Below, piece after piece: positions 24,707 to 34,249 of a stretch of DNA of 64,000 nucleotides. The notes below the pieces were generated by a model that made no database searches, was not told the DNA's origin, and worked only from the letters and a program-made list of their open reading frames with translations. Origin of the DNA: Vicinamibacteria bacterium (GTDB lineage: Bacteria; Acidobacteriota; Vicinamibacteria; Marinacidobacterales; Marinacidobacteraceae); assembly GCA_963668695.2 (NCBI GenBank), contig CAXXLQ010000004.1:2272001-2336000 (forward strand), in the 5' to 3' direction. Numbering within the stretch: the first letter of the stretch is position 1; every line of letters begins with the position of its first letter. A program made the position numbers and the translations under genes.

Positions 24707-27013
24707 TCAGTTGTTGTTCGGGCGCCGGCGGCCGCTTGAACTGCTGCCACCCCGGCTCACCGCGGTGCTGCCACCGCCGCCGCCTGCGGCGCTGCTGCCG
24801 CCACCGCTGGCGCTGCTGCTGCCGCCACCGCTGGTGCTGCCGCCACCGCCGCCACCCCGGCTCGCGCCGCTCTGTCCGCTCCCCGCGAAGCGGGAGAATC
24901 CACCGGGACGACCCCGCGAGGCGCTGCTTGGCCGGCTACGCGAAGCCGCGCTCGGGCGGCTGCGCGAAGCTCCGCTCGGACGACTCCTCACGGCTCCGCT
25001 GCTCGGGCGGCTGCGGCTGGCCCCACTGCTGGGCTGGCTGCGGGAAGCTCCACTCGGGCGGCTCCGGCTGGCCCCACTGCTGGGTTGGCTGCGGGAGGCG
25101 CCACTTGGGCGGCTGCGGCTGGCCCCACTGCTGGGTTGGCTACGAGAGGCTCCGCTCGGACGATTCCGGACGGCCCCGCTGTTTGGGCGGCTACGGGGAG
25201 TGCCCGACGAGCCGGCGGAAGCAGCGCCGCTTCGCGGAGATGCGGGCCGGACCGCTGACGGTCTTCTCGTTCCTGTCTCACCCGTCCGTCCGGCCGCGCG
25301 CGGCCTGGGAGATGTCGCCGGCCGGTTACCGGCGGAGCCTTCCCGGCCGCGGGCAGCCTCTGGGCGCCCCGTCCGGCGTCCGGCTGTCGAGGGGCCGGCT
25401 GTCCCCCGGCCTTGAGCAGTGGCCCGGGACCGGTTCGCCTCGGCGCCGCGAGCGCTCCCGCTCCGTCCTGCCGCTTCGCGGGCCAGGGTGGCGCGGTCCC
25501 TTTCCGCTGCGTACGTCGACCGTGCGCTGCGCGCCCGCGCTGCGCTTGAGGGGATCGCCACGCGCTGCCCGCGCAGGGTGCTGCGATCGGCTCCCACCGC
25601 GGCGCGACCGGCGGCGGCCGCTGCTCGGGTGGTGGCGCCCCGCGAATTCGAGAGCCTGCGGTTCGTGGACTTGGCGGAGCGGATCATCGCAGTGACCCCC
25701 ACCGCGCGCTGCCGGAAACCCCTGTCCAGGATGGCTCCCCGGGACAGAACCTGAGCGTCTTCCAGGTTCCGCAGACTGGAGGCGGACAACCGGTTGCGGG
25801 AGGCCGGCTGGCCGATCACCTCCCGAGCGGTGAAACTCCAGGAACCCCGATCGGCGACGGACCCGCGGGGCACCGCCTTCCCAAGGATCGTTCCCCGCCG
25901 GACCCCGCGGCCGCCGTATTCCCGCTCGGGCCCTTCGTATCCAGAGTAGCCATACCCGGAGTAGCCATACCCGGAGTAGCCATACCCGTAGTAGTCGTAC
26001 ACGGGGTAGCCGTAGTAGTTCAGCGGAGACCAGCCGACCCAGTTGTAGCCATAGCTCCAGGAAACCCAGCCCGGACCCCATACCGAGCCCGGCAGCCAGT
26101 ACCAGCCGAGGGGACCGTGCCCCCACCTGCCGTAGTGATAAGGAGCCCATCCCCAGGGGTCGTAGGAGACCCAGGTCAGGCCGAACGGCGTGTGCGCCCA
26201 GCGTCCCTGCCGGTAGGGGGCCCAACCGGCGGAAACGGTCGGATACCAGAGCCATCCCAGATGGCCATCCTGCTGCCAGCGGCCGTGCCCGTCGAGGTCG
26301 TGGGCGTATTCCCGTACTTCCTCGGGAAGTTCGTCATAGTGAGTTTCCGCGGTGGTGACGAACCGCCGCTGGCGGTCCTCGGTCCAGGCGAAGAAGTTGT
26401 CGTTGCCCAGGTATTCCTCCGGGGAAGCCGGCGCGGCGCCTTCGAAAGCGATGGTCCGCTGACCGGCTCCGACCAGCACGGAGCCCCATTCGGTGGACAC
26501 TGTCGCAATGCCCGAGTACACGACGAACTGGACCGTCCGGCCATCTTCAAGCAGGTCCGTCCGGTACTCCCCCTCTCCCTGGGGGGAGAAGGTGCCGCCG
26601 GGGGTTTCCACAACGACCTCGGTGTCGCTGGCCATCCACACGATGAGGCTTCCGGTCCAGAATCCGAGCCGGTGCGGACTATCTCCTTCCACGTAGTCCA
26701 GCTTGGTTCCCTCGTCCATCCAGGCAGTGACCCCGCCCGCGAAGCGCAGTTCGACCTGGCCGGGTTCGCGCGTCCAGATGCGGTCTCCGGGAAGGAAGGG
26801 ACTGCCCCGCTCGGCCTCGTGAGCGCCGAAGTCGTCAGCCCGCTGATGCCAGACGTCGCCGTCGACGACGCTGAGATTCCCGTAGGCGTAGGAACGTCCG
26901 GTTTCCTCGTTGGCCTGCGCGAGCGCCGCCGAGGGCTGGCCCAGAGCAAGCAGCAGGCTCAGGGCGCCTGCGTGCCGGAGGATCTTGTTGCGCCTGTTCG
27001 CTCTTTCGTGCAT
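24707..27013 (-). CDS. Exported FecR-like / DUF6600 protein with low-complexity tail
   Basis: Signal peptide, PGDRIWT, WAPYRQGRW...WVSYDPWGWAPYHYGRW; GGAGG RBS. Confidence 0.8.
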   Translation of the reverse strand: MHERANRRNKILRHAGALSLLLALGQPSAALAQANEETGRSYAYGNLSVVDGDVWHQRADDFGAHEAERGSPFLPGDRIWTREPGQVELRFAGGVTAWMDEGTKLDYVEGDSPHRLGFWTGSLIVWMASDTEVVVETPGGTFSPQGEGEYRTDLLEDGRTVQFVVYSGIATVSTEWGSVLVGAGQRTIAFEGAAPASPEEYLGNDNFFAWTEDRQRRFVTTAETHYDELPEEVREYAHDLDGHGRWQQDGHLGWLWYPTVSAGWAPYRQGRWAHTPFGLTWVSYDPWGWAPYHYGRWGHGPLGWYWLPGSVWGPGWVSWSYGYNWVGWSPLNYYGYPVYDYYGYGYSGYGYSGYGYSGYEGPEREYGGRGVRRGTILGKAVPRGSVADRGSWSFTAREVIGQPASRNRLSASSLRNLEDAQVLSRGAILDRGFRQRAVGVTAMIRSAKSTNRRLSNSRGATTRAAAAAGRAAVGADRSTLRGQRVAIPSSAARARSARSTYAAERDRATLAREAAGRSGSARGAEANRSRATAQGRGTAGPSTAGRRTGRPEAARGREGSAGNRPATSPRPRAAGRTGETGTRRPSAVRPASPRSGAASAGSSGTPRSRPNSGAVRNRPSGASRSQPSSGASRSRPSGASRSQPSSGASRSRPSGASRSQPSSGASRSRPSSGAVRSRPSGASRSRPSAASRSRPSSASRGRPGGFSRFAGSGQSGASRGGGGGGSTSGGGSSSASGGGSSAAGGGGGSTAVSRGGSSSSGRRRPNNN

Positions 27014-27157
27014 GGGCCACCTCCTGGAAGGCTGGCGTCTCAGGTGTCGCAATCCCTATGCCAGACGACGGCCGAGTCAACGCCTGAACCGGTCGGAACC
27101 CCATTTCGGCTCATCAGGACCGGCCTGACGGTGTGTCGTGACACCGGCGCCGGCCCA

Positions 27158-27880: not shown

Positions 27881-28864
27881 TCAGGCGCGCCGGCGCCGCG
27901 TGATCCTGGACAACTCGGGAGGGTCATTCGTGATCTGCAGCGTCTGGGTTTCGATTCCGTCCGCGTCAAGCCGGACGCCCGCGACCAGGGGGCCGTCGGT
28001 GACCCCGGCGGCGCAAAAGATCAGGCTCCTGCCAGGCGCCAGTTCCGTGGTGGTGAGTACGCGGCCCGGTTCCTCGACTCCCGTTTCTCGAAGTCGCTGC
28101 CTCTCGGCTTCGTTTCTGACGAGCAGCCTCCCCAGCATCCCGCCGCCGAGGCAGCGCAGGGCGGCGGCCGCGATCACCCCCTCCGGAGCGCCTCCGGACC
28201 CCATGGCCGCCTGGATTCCTGAACCCGGCGTCGCGCTCAGGATGCCGGCTGAGAGATCGCCGTCCCCGATGAGGCGGACACGGGCGCCGCTACGCCGCAG
28301 TCCGGCGATCAGGCCTTCGTGCCGGGACCGGTCGAGGACAACGACCGTGATCTCGCTCGCTGAACAGCCCTCGGCTTCGGCGATCGCCTGGACGTTCCGC
28401 TCTGGCGGGTGTTCGAGCCGGATCTCGCTGCCGAGCAGGTTCCGACTGGCCGCGCCCACCATGATCTTCTCCATGTAGATGTCGGGCGCGGTAAGCAGTC
28501 CGCCGCGCTCGGACCCGGCCAGCACCGAAATTGCCCCAGGCCCCCCGGTGGCGCACAGGTTCGTGCCCTCGAGCGGATCCACCGCAATGTCCAACTGCGG
28601 GGTGTCCTCGTCGCCGGCGCCGAACTCCTCTCCGCTCCACAGCATGGGAGCCTTGTCGCGTTCCCCTTCGCCGATGACCACCCGTCCGCGCACCGGGGCG
28701 GTATCCAGAATCCGGCGCATGGCGGAAACTGCCACCTGGTCCGAGTGGTGACGGTCTCCCTGTCCGATCGTGCGTGCGCAGGCGATGGCCGCCTCCTCGA
28801 CGGTGCGGATGAGGTAGGGGGCTACACCCCGGATTGGGATCTCGCCCGCTGCCTTCGTGCTCAA
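27881..28864 (-). CDS. glpX: Class II fructose-1,6-bisphosphatase
   Basis: VIGEGERDKAPML, DIAVDPLEGT, YMEK, DGD, GGAPEGV. Confidence 0.93.
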   Translation of the reverse strand: MSTKAAGEIPIRGVAPYLIRTVEEAAIACARTIGQGDRHHSDQVAVSAMRRILDTAPVRGRVVIGEGERDKAPMLWSGEEFGAGDEDTPQLDIAVDPLEGTNLCATGGPGAISVLAGSERGGLLTAPDIYMEKIMVGAASRNLLGSEIRLEHPPERNVQAIAEAEGCSASEITVVVLDRSRHEGLIAGLRRSGARVRLIGDGDLSAGILSATPGSGIQAAMGSGGAPEGVIAAAALRCLGGGMLGRLLVRNEAERQRLRETGVEEPGRVLTTTELAPGRSLIFCAAGVTDGPLVAGVRLDADGIETQTLQITNDPPELSRITRRRRA

Positions 28865-30105
28865 CGCTCGTCGGGTGCCGGGAGGGTGACCCGGATGGGA
28901 CGATCCCGCCGGTATCCCAGCGCGTAGTCGGCCTGCATCAGGGTGTGGATTTCCCGGGTTCCCTCGTAGATCACGGCGCCCTTGGAGTTCCGCCAGAAGC
29001 GCCCCACGGGGTACTCGTCCGAATAGCCGTAGGCACCGTGGATCTGAATGGCGTCCGATGCCGCCCTTTCGGAGGCGACGGTGGACACCCACTTGGCAAG
29101 TGAGGTCTCGCGGGTGTTTCGGCGTGCCCGGTTCTTCAGCTCTCCAGCGCGAAACCACAGTAGCCGGCTGACCTCGTAGTCGCGTTCCATGTTGGCGATC
29201 ATCTGCTTGACGAGCTGATATCGGCCGATCTCCTGACCGAAGGTTGTGCGGGAACGAGCCCACCGAACGCTCTCATCCCTGCAGGCCCGGATGAGTCCCG
29301 TCGCGCCGGCCGCCACGGTATAGCGACCCTGATCCAGAGCGAACATGGCGATCTTGAAACCCTCGCCCTCTTCGCCGAGCCGGTTCGCTGCCGGCACCCG
29401 GACATCATGCATGCGGAACCAGCCCGTGTTTCCTGCCCGAATCCCCCACTTGTGAGTCATGTTGCCCGACTCGAATCCGGGAAAGGAGCGCTGCACGATG
29501 AAAGCTGACAGGCCCGAGTGATCCCGCCGGGCCCTCTTGTCGGGATCCGTCCAGGCGATCACGAGGAAGTTGTCGGCGACCTCGGCCAGGGAGATCCAGT
29601 GCTTTTCGCCCGACAGCACGTAGTCTGACCCGTCGCGTCGGGCCGTCGCGCGGATGCCCACCGCGTCGCTCCCGGCGTCGGGTTCGGTCAGTCCGTAGGT
29701 TGCGATCTCGGTCCCTTCGGCTTGTGGCCGCAGGTAGCGCTCCTTCTGTGCCTCGCTGCCCCAGGCCAACAGCGACAGGGAGTTCAGTCCGGCGTGCACC
29801 GACATGATGACGCGCACCGAGGTGTCCACATATTCGAGTTCTTCGCAGGCCAGCCCGAGCGAGATGTAGTCCAGTCCCGCTCCCCCGTAGCGCTCGGGAA
29901 CCGAGATTCCCAGGATGCCGAGCTCTCCCAGTCCCTTGAGGATGCCGCGATCGAAGACCTTCGCGGCATCGTTTTCGCGGATGTGCGGCGCCACCTCGCG
30001 GGCAGCGAACTCGCGAACCAGAGACTCCGTCGCGCGGTGTTCTTCACTCAGATCGAAGTTCAGACGCTCAGCCAAATTCCTCTCGCCTTTCCCGGTTCTT
30101 TCCAT
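28861..30105 (-). CDS. Acyl-CoA dehydrogenase
   Basis: YGLTEPDAGSD, GEKHWIS, IQIHGAYGY, IYEGTREI. Confidence 0.93.
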   Translation of the reverse strand: MERTGKGERNLAERLNFDLSEEHRATESLVREFAAREVAPHIRENDAAKVFDRGILKGLGELGILGISVPERYGGAGLDYISLGLACEELEYVDTSVRVIMSVHAGLNSLSLLAWGSEAQKERYLRPQAEGTEIATYGLTEPDAGSDAVGIRATARRDGSDYVLSGEKHWISLAEVADNFLVIAWTDPDKRARRDHSGLSAFIVQRSFPGFESGNMTHKWGIRAGNTGWFRMHDVRVPAANRLGEEGEGFKIAMFALDQGRYTVAAGATGLIRACRDESVRWARSRTTFGQEIGRYQLVKQMIANMERDYEVSRLLWFRAGELKNRARRNTRETSLAKWVSTVASERAASDAIQIHGAYGYSDEYPVGRFWRNSKGAVIYEGTREIHTLMQADYALGYRRDRPIRVTLPAPDER

Positions 30106-30186
30106 CCCGCCCGCATCGCGCGGGCGGCGCGGAGCGCGGAGTATACGGGGATGTTCCAGGCTCGTCGTGCAGCTAGAGATGGGCGA

Positions 30187-31812
30187 TCAGATCCCGTTGG
30201 CGAGGGCGGCGGTCGCCGCTTCCGCCTCCGCCTTGCGTTTGCTGCCGCCGACTCCTCTGCCCAGCGCGCGCTGGCCGGCCAGGACTTCCATCACGTACGT
30301 CTTGTCGTGCTCCGGGCCACTCTCAGAGATGAGCCGGTAGACGGGTAGGCGTCCCTCCCTCTTCACGAGTGCCTCCTGGAGTGCCCCCTTCGGGTTGTCC
30401 GACGAGGCGGAGATCGGGGCTGCCTGTTTCTCGCTGATTTCGCGCTCGGAGCCGGAAGCCGATCCACTCCTCGTTCGGCTGCGCCTTCGATTGGCCTGCG
30501 TTTCGAGGTGTGCGAGCACCAGGCGCGCCGCATCCTTTTCGGCCTCCTTGAGACCGCTGCCGACTCCGGTTTCGACCAGTCCGTCGGCCAGCCGCAGGGT
30601 CACCGAGACCCTCCCGTCGCCCCCCGCGCTCCTGGGCCCGCGTTTCACTTCGTACCGAGGAGCTTCCTTGCCGGCCTGCGCGAGACGATTCTGGAGAAGC
30701 GTCTTCGGGTCCAGCAGTTCCAGGTCGGGGTTCTGAAGCTCTTCCAGGGCCTCTGCGAATGGCCGGCCGAGGGCTCGCCGGGCCGCTTTCAGGCTGCCGT
30801 CCACATAGAGCGCCCCCATGACCGCTTCTGCGGTCGCGACGGCTTCATCGCCGCCTCCGAGCGACCAGTGCCGACTCAATGTCCGGGTGAAGTCGGGGCT
30901 TTGGAACCTCATTCTGGCGAGGGTCATACGCCCTTCGTCCCACTCGGGGAAGTCGCTGTGGAGGACTTCCGCGAGCACCAGATGCATGACGTCGCGCCCC
31001 AGAAAGCGCAGCGCCTGCCGATTCGGAGTTCCGGCGGCAACCCCTCGGCCGCGTGAGCGCGGGGCCGGGCTGCGGCGTCTTCTCATTCGCCGCCTCTTGC
31101 CACGGCGACCCGCGGATTCGATGGCCCGGTTCGGGCCGTCTGCGTCGAGCGCCGCCAGCAGGATTCCGGGACGGGAAAAGGTGTACCCGAGCGCGCGCTC
31201 GACTCCCGTGCGAAGAAAGGCAGTGCGGCGGACGATCCGGACGCTGATCCGCCCCAGGGAGCGGAACGCTCCAGCCCCTCGACGCATCCATCCCGGAACA
31301 CCTTCCGGAGGCCTCAGCCGAAGCCTCTCCAGCTTTGTCCTGAACGCGGCGGCCAAGACACCTCGGGCGGCGGGCATGCCGCCGTCGAGATAAGCAGCCC
31401 CCAAAACGGCTTCAAAGACATTCGCCAGGATGCGATCCGAAGATCGCACCTCCTCGCCGGCGCTCCGCCCGCGGCCGACGCGAATTCCCTCGTCCAGCGA
31501 GAGGGTTCGGGCCGCCGAGGCGAGCGAGTGGTTGCTCACCAGCTCGGATTTGGTCTCCTGACGCCGTTGCCCGTCCCAATTCGGGCGCTGAAAGTGCATC
31601 GCCTCCGTGACGACGAGTCCAAGCGCGGCGTCTCCGACGAACTCCAGCCGTTCGTAGTCGGGCACCTCGTGATCATTTCGGTAGGAGCCGTGGGTCAGGG
31701 CCTCCTCCAGAAGGTCGATGTTCCGGAAGCGGTACCCGAGACCCCGGGCGAACTCCAGCACCGGACGATGGTCTGATGCCGGAGAGCGTCTTCGTCGTCT
31801 GCTTCGGGCCAT
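30187..31812 (-). CDS. rnc: Ribonuclease III with two RNase III domains and two dsRBDs
   Basis: ALTHGS, YERLEFVGD, NVFEAVLGAAYLDGG; second QALRFLGRD...AEAVMGALYVDG; DPKTLLQ and NPKGALQE dsRBDs. Confidence 0.85.
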   Translation of the reverse strand: MARSRRRRRSPASDHRPVLEFARGLGYRFRNIDLLEEALTHGSYRNDHEVPDYERLEFVGDAALGLVVTEAMHFQRPNWDGQRRQETKSELVSNHSLASAARTLSLDEGIRVGRGRSAGEEVRSSDRILANVFEAVLGAAYLDGGMPAARGVLAAAFRTKLERLRLRPPEGVPGWMRRGAGAFRSLGRISVRIVRRTAFLRTGVERALGYTFSRPGILLAALDADGPNRAIESAGRRGKRRRMRRRRSPAPRSRGRGVAAGTPNRQALRFLGRDVMHLVLAEVLHSDFPEWDEGRMTLARMRFQSPDFTRTLSRHWSLGGGDEAVATAEAVMGALYVDGSLKAARRALGRPFAEALEELQNPDLELLDPKTLLQNRLAQAGKEAPRYEVKRGPRSAGGDGRVSVTLRLADGLVETGVGSGLKEAEKDAARLVLAHLETQANRRRSRTRSGSASGSEREISEKQAAPISASSDNPKGALQEALVKREGRLPVYRLISESGPEHDKTYVMEVLAGQRALGRGVGGSKRKAEAEAATAALANGI

Positions 31813-31813
31813 C

Positions 31814-33754
31814 TCAGTCCACCCGTATGAGAACCATCGTCAGATCGTCCGTGTGGGCCTCGGCCCCGGTGAAGTGCTGGACCGCGTCTTCCACGTTCCG
31901 TTGCAGGGCCGCCGGTGGCAGTGCTGCACCGTCTTCCAGGAGCCGCATGAGCCTTTCCTCCCCAAACATGTCGGATTCGGCGTTCATCGCTTCGGAGACG
32001 CCGTCCGTGAAGAAGAGCCAGGTCTCTCCCGCACAAAGCGGTTGCGATCGCTCCTCGATGATTGCATCGAAGACCGGTCCCGGATCCAGCGCCAATCCGA
32101 GGCCCGGAGGTTCGAGCGCCTCGGAGCGGGGCCATTCGCCGTCTTGTCGAATCAGATGGAGGAGGGGACTGTGACCGGCTCGGGCAAACGTGACCCGGCT
32201 GGCGGCAGAGTCGAAAACTGCGTAGGTGATGGTGATGAAGGTGCGCGAATCGAGTTCGTTGTACAGAACCCGGTTCGCTTCGATCAGCACCGTGCGCGGC
32301 GACTCGTGGATTCGACTCAAGGCGAGCATCAGACCCTTGAGTTCGGCCATGATGAAAGCAGCCCGAGTTCCGGTCCCGGATACGTCGGCGATCACCACTC
32401 CGAGCTGATTCGGTCCGAGCGGGTACAGGTCGTAGTAGTCGCCGCCCACCTCGGTTGCGGGCCGGCAGACGGCCGCCATCGCAAATCCCGGTACTGAGAC
32501 CGATCCTTCGGGAGGCAGTAGCCGTGCCTGGGACTGGCGCGCGGTCTCCATTTCCTGTTCGAGAACGGCCGCGCGCCGGAGACGGCCCATGTCGTCGGCG
32601 ATCTTGGCGGTCATGATGTTGAAGGAACTCGCGAGTTCTCCCAGCTGGTCAGGAGATGCGGCGCGAACCTGATGCCCGAAGTTCCCGCTCCGGACAAAAT
32701 CGGTCCCCTGACTCAGAGCTTCGACGGATCGGGTGATCGAGCGAGCAAGCCGCAGCCCGGCGGAGAAAGCCACGCACTCGATGAGCACGAAGACGATGCC
32801 GAGGCCGCCGAGTACCAGGAGCAGGCCGCTGCGCCAGTCCTGATTGCTGATCGCCACGGGCTCGGAGAGTCCACTTGTTGTTCCCTGGATCAGATGAATC
32901 GGGGCGAACCCGATGGCCACCAGGATGGTGCCCCCTTCCATGTCCGGACCCCAGGGAACGGCATCGAGCAACAGCGGCTCGTCCCAGCCGATCGTGAATC
33001 GATCGTCGCCCGATCCTGAGAAGTGCAGCGGGGCAGGCGGATCCTCGTTTTGATCTCCCAGATAGAGCGTCCACACCGTACGGACGCTCAGGTCCTCCTC
33101 CCGGGCGCTTTGCTCGAGCAACGGCGCCAGCGGAGCCAGGACGACTGCCAGGCGATCCCCGCGTGGGCTGGGAAACACCGCGCCGAACCACTCGGTGTCT
33201 TCCATCTGCACTACGCCCTCGTACGCGGTGCGAGCCCATTCAGGCACCGCATCGGACTCGCGAATGGGCCCTTCGCTACCGGAATGCACCAATCGGACGA
33301 TGCGTCCATCCTCGACCTCGAGATACCAGGCCGCCGCTCCGGGAGCGAAGGGTGTGATCCTCGCAATCGCTCTCTCCAGGCCCAGAGCGATTTCCGGCGC
33401 ACCCGATCCCGGGGAGACCTCCAGCAGCGTCTGTTGAGCCGCCGAGGCGAACGCTGTCCCGCGGGCTGCCAGGTTCGCCTGGAAGGCATAGGAGCCGAAC
33501 AGCCCCAGAACTACGTAGAAGGCGAGCAGAAAGAAAGAGGTGAGCAGCAGGACCGGCAACAGCCCCACGAACAGGTAGGAGACGGCCAGTTTCCGGCGCA
33601 CGGGATAGAGCACCCAGTGGAGCAGATCGCGCCCGAAGTACACGAGCACCGCCCCCAGCGTGATGACGAAGACCGTCCAGGCGTCCGCCGTCCACGAGCG
33701 GGGAAGGGCCCCTGCCGAGGAAAGTGTGGCGATCGCTCCGACCCCGAGCAGCAA
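31814..33754 (-). CDS. Membrane HAMP + PP2C/SpoIIE Ser/Thr phosphatase
   Basis: TM helices, DQLGELASSFN, VGGDYYD, IADVSG, FTDG, DDLT; true start may lie further upstream. Confidence 0.9.
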   Translation of the reverse strand: MLLGVGAIATLSSAGALPRSWTADAWTVFVITLGAVLVYFGRDLLHWVLYPVRRKLAVSYLFVGLLPVLLLTSFFLLAFYVVLGLFGSYAFQANLAARGTAFASAAQQTLLEVSPGSGAPEIALGLERAIARITPFAPGAAAWYLEVEDGRIVRLVHSGSEGPIRESDAVPEWARTAYEGVVQMEDTEWFGAVFPSPRGDRLAVVLAPLAPLLEQSAREEDLSVRTVWTLYLGDQNEDPPAPLHFSGSGDDRFTIGWDEPLLLDAVPWGPDMEGGTILVAIGFAPIHLIQGTTSGLSEPVAISNQDWRSGLLLVLGGLGIVFVLIECVAFSAGLRLARSITRSVEALSQGTDFVRSGNFGHQVRAASPDQLGELASSFNIMTAKIADDMGRLRRAAVLEQEMETARQSQARLLPPEGSVSVPGFAMAAVCRPATEVGGDYYDLYPLGPNQLGVVIADVSGTGTRAAFIMAELKGLMLALSRIHESPRTVLIEANRVLYNELDSRTFITITYAVFDSAASRVTFARAGHSPLLHLIRQDGEWPRSEALEPPGLGLALDPGPVFDAIIEERSQPLCAGETWLFFTDGVSEAMNAESDMFGEERLMRLLEDGAALPPAALQRNVEDAVQHFTGAEAHTDDLTMVLIRVD

Positions 33755-34249
33755 ACGACCGGGCCAGGAGCGGGCGAGAGCCTTCGCCGCACGTCCCAGA
33801 CCTTTGGCCAGGGATCCGGGATAGGCAGGCGTCGCGGGAGGCGGAACTGATGCGGAGGCTGGCCCGGCCGGTCGCCCCGCGTGCTGCGGTGGGTCTTGGG
33901 TGGAAATGTGTTGGCGTGCGGGTGTTTGAGAAACGGCAGTTGGCCGGATTGCTGGATCCGGGGCGTTCCCGATGAGGTCCGGTTCGACCCCTCTGGGGGA
34001 CGCGCGCTCGCACTCGAAACCCGAAGGCTCGGCGCCGCCCGCAGAGCGGACGATCCGTCAGAGCGCGGTGCGCCGCCGAGACACCGGGTCCAGAGGCGGT
34101 TCCGAAACAGAACGTGCGGCCGGCCGGCCAGTTCCGCCAGGCAAGGCCCCGCTTGGAATGGTCCGGTTACCGCGACACGGGTCGGAAGCGCCGGTGAGCA
34201 CCGGGCCGGCAAGAGCACGGGCCGGCGCCCCGAGTACTCGATTCAAGTG

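Follow-up and report, generated by a model that had tools for sequence, protein, structure and literature searches.

An uncultured Acidobacteria family has had its ordinary RNase III gene (rnc) replaced, at the gene's own locus and in every family member examined, by a gene whose product carries one intact and one dismantled nuclease domain in a single chain. We describe this tandem RNase III from a 64,000-nucleotide stretch of the genome of a Vicinamibacteria bacterium (contig CAXXLQ010000004.1; hereafter the window), where it lies at coordinates 30187..31812 with an ATG start and a TGA stop (30187-30189) and encodes 541 aa in an uninterrupted frame; coordinates are those of the window, and all of the genes and protein segments described are on its minus strand. 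By "the family" we mean the uncultured Acidobacteria family that includes the window's genome (G000), and by "sister families" two others of the same order. The gene is genuine and conserved, represents a variant of RNase III for which we found no earlier description, and may encode a natural nickase of double-stranded RNA (dsRNA).

Domain architecture of the tandem RNase III

Pfam and NCBIfam profiles were matched to the entire protein and to four separate pieces of it, and reveal two RNase III domains (RIIIDs) followed by two dsRNA-binding domains (dsRBDs) in the order RIIID-a, RIIID-b, dsRBD1 and dsRBD2. All four domains score, in agreement with an original prediction made from the sequence, which described a 541-aa open reading frame with two RNase III domains and then two dsRBDs, and the motifs that it quoted, including ERLEFVGD and ALRFLGRD, are all present where it placed them. 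RIIID-a (residues 17-166; 31315..31764), is the presumed active nuclease domain; residues 32-154 match PF14622 (99 bits) and PF00636 (67 bits) and cover positions 3-143 of the TIGR02191 model, and these scores together with ERLEFVGD place the protein in the RNase III superfamily. The ERLEFVGD motif (residues 54-61; 31630-31653) supplies E54, E57 and D61, and an NVFE motif (residues 131-134; 31411-31422) supplies N131 and E134. RIIID-b (residues 198-366; 30715..31221), a nuclease-like domain that is very probably catalytically dead, matches PF00636 over residues ~263-320 with 29.2 bits (cut-off 27) at profile positions 1-53 of 102 only, and TIGR02191 at model positions 31-158 with an E-value of 2.4e-11; the second region therefore does score as an RNase III domain, and it is also folded as one by AlphaFold2. 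Its landmarks are ALRFLGRD (residues 267-274; 30991-31014), in which R269 and R273 occupy the positions of Escherichia coli E41 and D45, the conserved segment FPEWDEGRMTLARMR (30907-30951), and ATAE at residues 326-329 (A326 and E329).

The two dsRBDs are unequal. dsRBD1 (residues 367-440; 30493..30714) matches dsrm with 34.8 bits over residues ~369-436 and is degenerate, having no GPxH loop and LKEAEK at the position of the KKxAE-type motif; dsRBD2 (residues 471-541; 30190..30402) is canonical, with a GPEH loop and SKRKAE, and matches dsrm with 55.6 bits over residues 474-539. The entire protein scores 238.1 bits against TIGR02191, a sum of three stretches that is above the curated equivalog cut-off (166.25), and by piece the scores are 118.7 bits for domain a, 43.6 for domain b, and 26 and 59 for the dsRBD pieces. 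The four-domain architecture is thus plain, and the chain is composed of one conservative rnc set (a and dsRBD2) and one degenerate set (b and dsRBD1).

The protein is unusually basic, with a predicted isoelectric point (pI) of 10.9 and a net charge of +28, whereas ordinary rnc proteins have a pI of 5-7. The charge is concentrated in four disordered segments: an Arg-rich N-terminal tail (residues 1-16; 31765..31812; seven Arg, net +6, predicted disordered), a basic connector between a and b (residues 167-197; 31222..31314; eight Arg, net +7, with a predicted long helix at ~175-197), an insert within RIIID-b (residues 225-262; 31027..31140; net +12) and a linker between the dsRBDs (residues 441-470; 30403..30492; net +4). 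The folded domains themselves carry little net charge. Of 20 aligned family members 18 have the tail, the remaining two being shorter N-terminally. The insert, whose Arg-rich character had been predicted, contains 13 Arg and one Lys in 38 residues, varies from 16 to 69 residues across the family, and has values of 34-38 in the AlphaFold2 predicted local distance difference test (pLDDT). All four segments vary in length among family members and keep their character.

Conservation, distribution and copy number

A search of 41 related genomes with the entire protein identifies the full-length tandem form at one locus in each of the 24 other family genomes, which represent seven genera, with identities from 93% to 52%. 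Longer inserts split the match in two of these genomes (G017 and G022) within a single open frame. Used on the sister families, the query finds a frame of ~255 aa that matches domain a and dsRBD2 only. A query with the b region alone, against 55 genomes of the order, gives E-values below 1e-36 in 28 of 28 family genomes, the window's own included, several of which are single-contig assemblies. Among 27 sister-family genomes it matches the one ordinary rnc of 25, and only weakly (E-values of 2e-9 to 5e-4, 26-33% identity), and has no match in the other two, whose completeness is 73% and 84%. One genome flagged as unpublished (G033) is counted in these tallies; no statement rests on it. A large protein collection contains 73 further protein clusters of the tandem form from several sources, which where named are given as 'hypothetical protein' and Acidobacteria, and among 1.84 billion cluster representatives the family accounts for two full-length 50% clusters and fragments within 30,628 RNase III-like matches. 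TIGR02191 and PF00636 match this gene alone in G000 (4.1 Mb), and no canonical rnc is matched by them elsewhere in that genome.

There are variations within the family. In one genus (G022 locus L116, G017 locus L115, and proteins P0053-P0055) a third dsRBD lies between dsRBD1 and dsRBD2 and is a recent close copy of dsRBD2; in this genus the insert of domain b is also much longer, at 50-69 residues, and is Arg/Gly-rich.

Domain a and an order-wide asparagine

Residues E54, E57, D61 and E134 of domain a, which correspond to E. coli E38, E41, D45 and E117, are invariant in 20 of 20 diverse family members, and the position of E. coli D114 is occupied by Asn (N131), invariant in the same alignment. 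Motifs were also counted in 74 family proteins, with denominators restricted to the proteins that include the region concerned: ERLEF[LV]GD is present in 72 of 72 and Asn at the D114 position in 73 of 73. Domain a therefore has three of the four acidic metal ligands of RNase III (E41, D45, D114 and E117) together with an Asn (E57, D61, N131 and E134). The original prediction had reported ERLEFVGD, the E117 equivalent and the Asn in domain 1 correctly, but the Asn is not peculiar to this protein, as it is found at the same position in 14 of 14 ordinary single-domain rnc genes of the two sister families (xNALEAV). Sixteen rnc genes of other phyla have Asp at this position in 14 instances and Gly in two, both of the latter in records labelled Chloroflexi.

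In a deep mutational scan of E. coli rnc, E41, D45 and E117 tolerate no change and D114 is tolerant, with a D114G mutant cleaving 48% compared to 69% for the wild type (PMC10037077). Because Asn is shared by all 14 sister-family genes and D114 is tolerant in E. coli, N131 is no sign of a weakened domain a, and with E57, D61 and E134 invariant the domain looks like a working site of the type that is normal in this order. We consider it quite probable, from these sequence comparisons, that domain a is active. RNase III sites that occur in nature with only three carboxylates may be less rare than reviews suggest, and the presence of Asn for a D114-type metal ligand across an entire order bears on what constitutes a minimal RNase III site.

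Domain b is dismantled and retained

The corresponding four positions of domain b are R269, R273, A326 and E329. RFLGRD is present in 74 of 74 family proteins, and Arg thus invariably takes the place of E41 and of D45. At the D114 position 72 of 72 matched proteins have A, G, P or S. The residue aligned with E38 varies, and E329, the counterpart of E117, is the only ligand retained. Loss of the E38, E41 and D45 equivalents had been predicted for domain 2 and is borne out across the family. Alignment further indicates that domain b has lost ~11-15 residues of the loop preceding the last catalytic helix. With Arg at the E41 and D45 positions, the D114 equivalent lost and E117 alone kept, domain b is dismantled as a metal-dependent site, and we are fairly confident that it is without catalytic activity.

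Domain b has nonetheless been maintained. In seven within-genus pairs the ratio of nonsynonymous to synonymous substitution rates (dN/dS) is 0.08-0.21 for domain b (insert excluded), 0.05-0.28 for domain a and 0.03-0.19 for dsRBD2, whereas the insert and linkers mostly give 0.3-1.0, with three pair values lower; the a-b connector ranges from ~0 to 0.80 in the seven pairs (0.30-0.80 in six). By these sequence ratios domain b is under purifying selection. Its best-conserved stretches are the signature helix (F270, L271 and G272) and FPEWDEGRMTLARMR, and F270, at the position of E. coli F42, is invariant together with the following LG in the 20-member alignment. The signature helix and the FPEWDEGRMTLARMR-type regions of ordinary RNase III line the dimer interface and make RNA contacts. 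PMC8708148 lists E. coli F42 as an important residue. The E65 position is lost in domain a (G81, variable) and invariant in domain b (E293), and the E38 position is kept in domain a (E54) and lost in domain b.

A predicted intramolecular pseudo-dimer

The AlphaFold2 model of the full-length protein has a mean pLDDT of 77 and a predicted template modelling score (pTM) of 0.61, with the N-terminal tail and residues 225-260 and 445-471 disordered, and Foldseek places Drosha and Dicers, rather than single-domain RNase III, at the top of its matches. A core model of residues 1-367, made with an 18-sequence alignment, has a pTM of 0.79 and 63 residues below a pLDDT of 50, and sets a and b as an intramolecular pseudo-dimer of the Drosha/Dicer type, the arrangement for which structure prediction had been suggested as a check. 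Both domains of this model align together with Drosha (5b16_A; Z 27.1, root mean square deviation [rmsd] 5.0 Å, 320 residues), human Dicer (21cb_A; Z 25.0, 3.8 Å, 287 residues), fly Dicer-1 (8dgj_A; Z 23.9, 3.2 Å, 273 residues) and Giardia Dicer (2ffl_A; Z 20.8, 4.8 Å, 297 residues). Bacterial nuclease domains align to domain a only, over 140-152 residues with an rmsd of 1.8-2.9 Å, as in the match of domain a to the Campylobacter jejuni rnc nuclease domain (3o2r_A; Z 20.5, 1.8 Å, 142 residues); the best sequence matches among structures for domain a and dsRBD2 are 2a11 and 7r97. On these models it is likely that a and b pair within one chain as a Drosha/Dicer-type pseudo-dimer.

Locus and ancestry

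The gene immediately upstream (31814..33754) encodes a membrane protein with HAMP and SpoIIE/PP2C-type phosphatase domains, and its stop codon is separated by 1 nt from the ATG of the tandem RNase III gene; the downstream gene (28861..30105) encodes an acyl-CoA dehydrogenase and is a conserved downstream neighbour within the family. The HAMP-SpoIIE gene is directly upstream at 12 of 12 loci of the same genus and at 8 of 8 loci of five other family genera, and the acyl-CoA dehydrogenase gene is downstream at 11 of 12 and 8 of 8, respectively. In the sister families, the best homologue of the phosphatase gene lies directly upstream of ordinary rnc in four of five genomes (G026, G031, G036 and G040). 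Because this neighbour is common to both, the tandem gene is the positional orthologue of rnc, remodelled in place, and both its locus and its being the sole RNase III match in its genome indicate orthology with rnc. Across the order this phosphatase gene directly precedes rnc, and a regulatory link between the two may exist.

Trees of the individual domains contain a clade of a domains, a clade of b domains and a clade of sister-family rnc, each strongly supported. The stem leading to domain a has a length of 0.88, a strong divergence from the rnc of the order, and the a and b subtrees share internal groupings, so that a and b have been companions since the family arose. A grouping of all of the tandem-protein domains is weak (82 in the Shimodaira-Hasegawa-like approximate likelihood ratio test, SH-aLRT) and we do not rely on it. 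TIGR02191 model positions 31-217 match b and dsRBD1 in one stretch, and we considered whether b plus dsRBD1 is an entire rnc unit nested between a and dsRBD2; this is not separable from stepwise duplications. The extra recent dsRBD in one genus shows that dsRBDs do duplicate independently.

The RNase III gene and its neighbours (28800-33800) are matched in part, with 95-100% identity and at low depth, by contigs from RNA libraries (four metatranscriptome-type runs of a single study), and one 521-base contig spans the phosphatase/RNase III junction. These are at most a weak hint of expression, as DNA may be present and the contigs show no transcript ends, and gaps in their coverage carry no meaning.

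A proposed mechanism and its alternatives

We propose that the rnc of the family was remodelled in place to give the single chain RIIID-a, RIIID-b, dsRBD1 and dsRBD2, in which a and b would pair inside one polypeptide and form one dsRNA-binding valley. The active end of the valley would be the metal-binding centre of domain a (E57, D61, N131 and E134), while at the dead end R269 and R273, in the vestigial centre of domain b, may contact the phosphate backbone of the opposite, uncut strand; dsRBD2, the degenerate dsRBD1 and the four Arg-rich disordered segments would add affinity for RNA. With one active and one dead end, each binding event would yield one nick, and the enzyme would have to bind again the other way round to make a staggered double cut; cleavage could be strand-selective if domain b and the two dissimilar dsRBDs sense some asymmetry. 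No other RNase III was found in the genome, so the enzyme presumably performs housekeeping tasks such as the processing of ribosomal RNA (rRNA) precursor stems and of mRNA/antisense duplexes. We infer the activity of domain a, the phosphate-holding arginines and the nicking from the sequences and the predicted structures. A review (PMC3867540) describes precedents for such nicking: dsRNA is nicked by engineered E. coli RNase III heterodimers in which one site works, and the KREN/KREPB pairs of kinetoplastid editosomes are proposed to act likewise. On balance, a single-chain pseudo-dimer with one catalytic centre that nicks dsRNA once per binding event is the reading that we favour, by a little over even chances.

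Several points weigh against this reading. The pairing of a with b comes from single-chain AlphaFold2 predictions with shallow alignments (18-20 sequences), by a program that was trained on Drosha, Dicer and RNase III homodimers and was offered no other partner, and domain a keeps all that is needed to pair with a second copy of itself. The complementary loss of the E38 and E65 positions in the two domains bears on a:b pairing through a structural detail, that these two residues meet across subunits, and we keep it as a side remark rather than as proof. The domain trees, which carry a warning of long-branch joins, give no supported mutual order for the a, b and rnc clades and do not indicate whether domain b derives from domain a in this lineage, and G000 is 91.7% complete with 9.3% contamination, such that a second rnc might have been missed in this genome.

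The strongest alternative is that two chains join through their a domains (a:a') to form two active sites that make ordinary double-strand cuts, with b as a non-catalytic RNA-binding or scaffolding module, either alone or as b:b'. Domain a keeps the signature helix, F58 and G60 that are used by canonical homodimers and matches bacterial nuclease domains with an rmsd of 1.8-2.1 Å, and since rRNA is normally processed by double cuts, the sole RNase III found might be expected to keep that activity. Against this, in both AlphaFold2 models the dimer face of a is covered by b instead of being exposed to solvent; tethering gives a partner a large advantage in concentration; and all of the solved tandem-RIIID proteins matched here pair intramolecularly (PMC3867540). 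Domain a has also diverged strongly from the rnc of the order (stem length 0.88) and has lost the E65 position that b retains, which fits adaptation to a non-identical partner. We consider the a:a' arrangement unlikely, though it is the most serious competitor of the single-chain nickase.

A second alternative, that the protein no longer cleaves RNA and is a dsRNA-binding chaperone or scaffold, with other RNases processing rRNA, seems to us distinctly improbable. It would account for the Asn at one of the four canonical metal-ligand positions in domain a and for the high pI (10.9) and four Arg-rich disordered segments, and it has a parallel in chloroplast RNC1, described in PMC3867540 as having tandem silent RIIIDs with a structural role. 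However, E57, D61 and E134 are invariant in domain a, 14 of 14 ordinary rnc genes of the sister families share this Asn and in the searches made are apparently the sole RNase III genes of their genomes, and D114 tolerates mutation in E. coli (PMC10037077); moreover, an intact a site next to a dismantled b site is unexpected if neither is used. That the long frame is an assembly or gene-calling artefact joining two rnc-like genes can be dismissed as vanishingly improbable, because, even though the window derives from a metagenome-type assembly with 9.3% estimated contamination, the same unbroken frame is conserved in 28 of 28 family genomes (several of them single-contig, with identities down to 52%) and in the 73 further clusters, the order a-b-dsRBD-dsRBD is unlike the product of joining two genes, and RNA-library contigs match parts of the gene, with one bridging its start.

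Comparison with known systems

Bacterial Rnc of class 1, as in E. coli, Aquifex aeolicus and Mycobacterium tuberculosis, is described in PMC3867540 as a protein of ~220 aa with one RIIID and one dsRBD that forms a symmetric homodimer with two sites, and reviews regard tandem nuclease domains as a eukaryotic feature. The tandem RNase III shares with these enzymes the ordinary rnc parts, domain a and dsRBD2, and its locus is that of sister-family rnc, but it has 541 aa, two RIIIDs and two dsRBDs, and one of its sites is dismantled. By descent it is a bacterial rnc, but it lies outside the defining architecture of one RIIID and one dsRBD. We found no description of a bacterial protein with two RNase III domains in the literature searched, which did not extend to subscription journals or domain-architecture databases.

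Drosha and Dicer likewise have two RIIIDs in one chain followed by one or more dsRBDs, and the predicted pseudo-dimer superposes on them with an rmsd of 3.2-5.0 Å over 273-320 residues. In those enzymes both sites work, whereas domain b of the tandem RNase III is without equivalents of E41 and D45 (74 of 74 proteins) and D114 (72 of 72). Drosha and Dicer also carry PAZ, helicase, platform or other domains, where the tandem RNase III has only its Arg-rich disordered segments; no PAZ, helicase, platform or P-rich/RS Pfam match is found in it at E-values up to 10. No evidence of common descent with Drosha or Dicer was obtained, the tree being one without eukaryotic sequences.

Further parallels are found among enzymes with unequal domains. 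In the kinetoplastid editosome KREN1-3 are proposed to pair with KREPB4/5, one active with one inactive RNase III domain, so that a single strand is cut (PMC3867540). These mitochondrial proteins of eukaryotes are separate polypeptides in a large complex, with zinc-finger and PUF domains rather than dsRBDs. The residue pattern of the tandem RNase III fits such an active/inactive pair, whose joint action is predicted here. In artificial heterodimers of E. coli RNase III, reportedly made by Conrad et al. in 2002 and by Meng and Nicholson in 2008 (cited in PMC3867540), one subunit is inactivated; they have one functional site per dimer but are two-chain laboratory constructs, whereas the tandem RNase III is natural, single-chain and family-wide. 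Two plant proteins are of relevance for their domain content. RNC1 has tandem RIIIDs in which catalytic residues are mutated, both domains being silent, and acts in intron splicing (PMC3867540), and plant RTL3 has two RNase III domains and three dsRBDs (PMC4687873), a count that resembles that of the three-dsRBD members of the family; both RNC1 and RTL3 are eukaryotic.

Other tandem RNase III proteins in metagenomes

Ten long, multi-stretch proteins from among the 150 best matches were scanned, and eight of these have two or more RIIIDs, one being a PAZ-bearing, Dicer-like protein. Three GC-rich, bacterial-looking proteins of 437-439 aa (P0080, P0084 and P0111) have an intact RIIID, a degenerate RIIID and one dsRBD, and share 30-32% identity with the protein in the window; their second RIIID has lost the E41 position (K or A), and two of the three have also lost the E117 position (K). 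Two others, P0078 (480 aa) and P0107 (544 aa), are tandems of an entire rnc (RIIID-dsRBD-RIIID-dsRBD) with both signature motifs largely intact, and because the two domains of each are mutual nearest relatives in the tree they appear to be separate internal duplications. The domain orders or counts of all five are unlike those of the tandem RNase III in the window, and it seems that tandem RNase III has arisen more than once outside of the well-known eukaryotic enzymes. A search of genome contigs with P0111 found no relative. A search with a three-family alignment gave 80 loci, and because its patterns are general RNase III motifs, almost every match was as long as would be expected of ordinary rnc with a single domain.

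Other features of the window

Elsewhere in the window, coordinates 24707-27052 encode a 781-aa protein with FecR and DUF6600 matches and a Tyr/Gly-rich stretch. It has a long C-terminal tail of near-perfect Ser/Arg/Pro/Gly repeats (SGASRSRPS-type), which at the DNA level have a 51-base period and 3.8 copies (25002-25197). Across the 64-kb window, no match to an Rfam family attains the gathering score.

Implications

We tentatively suggest, as an account that still falls somewhat short of even odds, that in an entire bacterial family a housekeeping RNase III of the essential type has become a natural nickase of dsRNA in one chain, a Drosha-like pseudo-dimer in which arginines replace the second Mg2+ site and hold the uncut strand, and duplexes are processed strand-selectively. 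If the enzyme nicks, it would be a natural model for the origin of asymmetric RNase III enzymes (Drosha, Dicer and the editosome nucleases) from a homodimer, a present-day illustration, arisen independently in bacteria, of how a homodimeric RNase III becomes a tandem enzyme of the Drosha/Dicer type, and a compact natural dsRNA nickase for work with RNA. For the family itself, rRNA and mRNA duplexes would be cut strand-selectively rather than by the symmetric double cut that is thought to be universal for bacterial RNase III, and the question would arise of how rRNA is matured by an enzyme that makes a single cut each time it binds.

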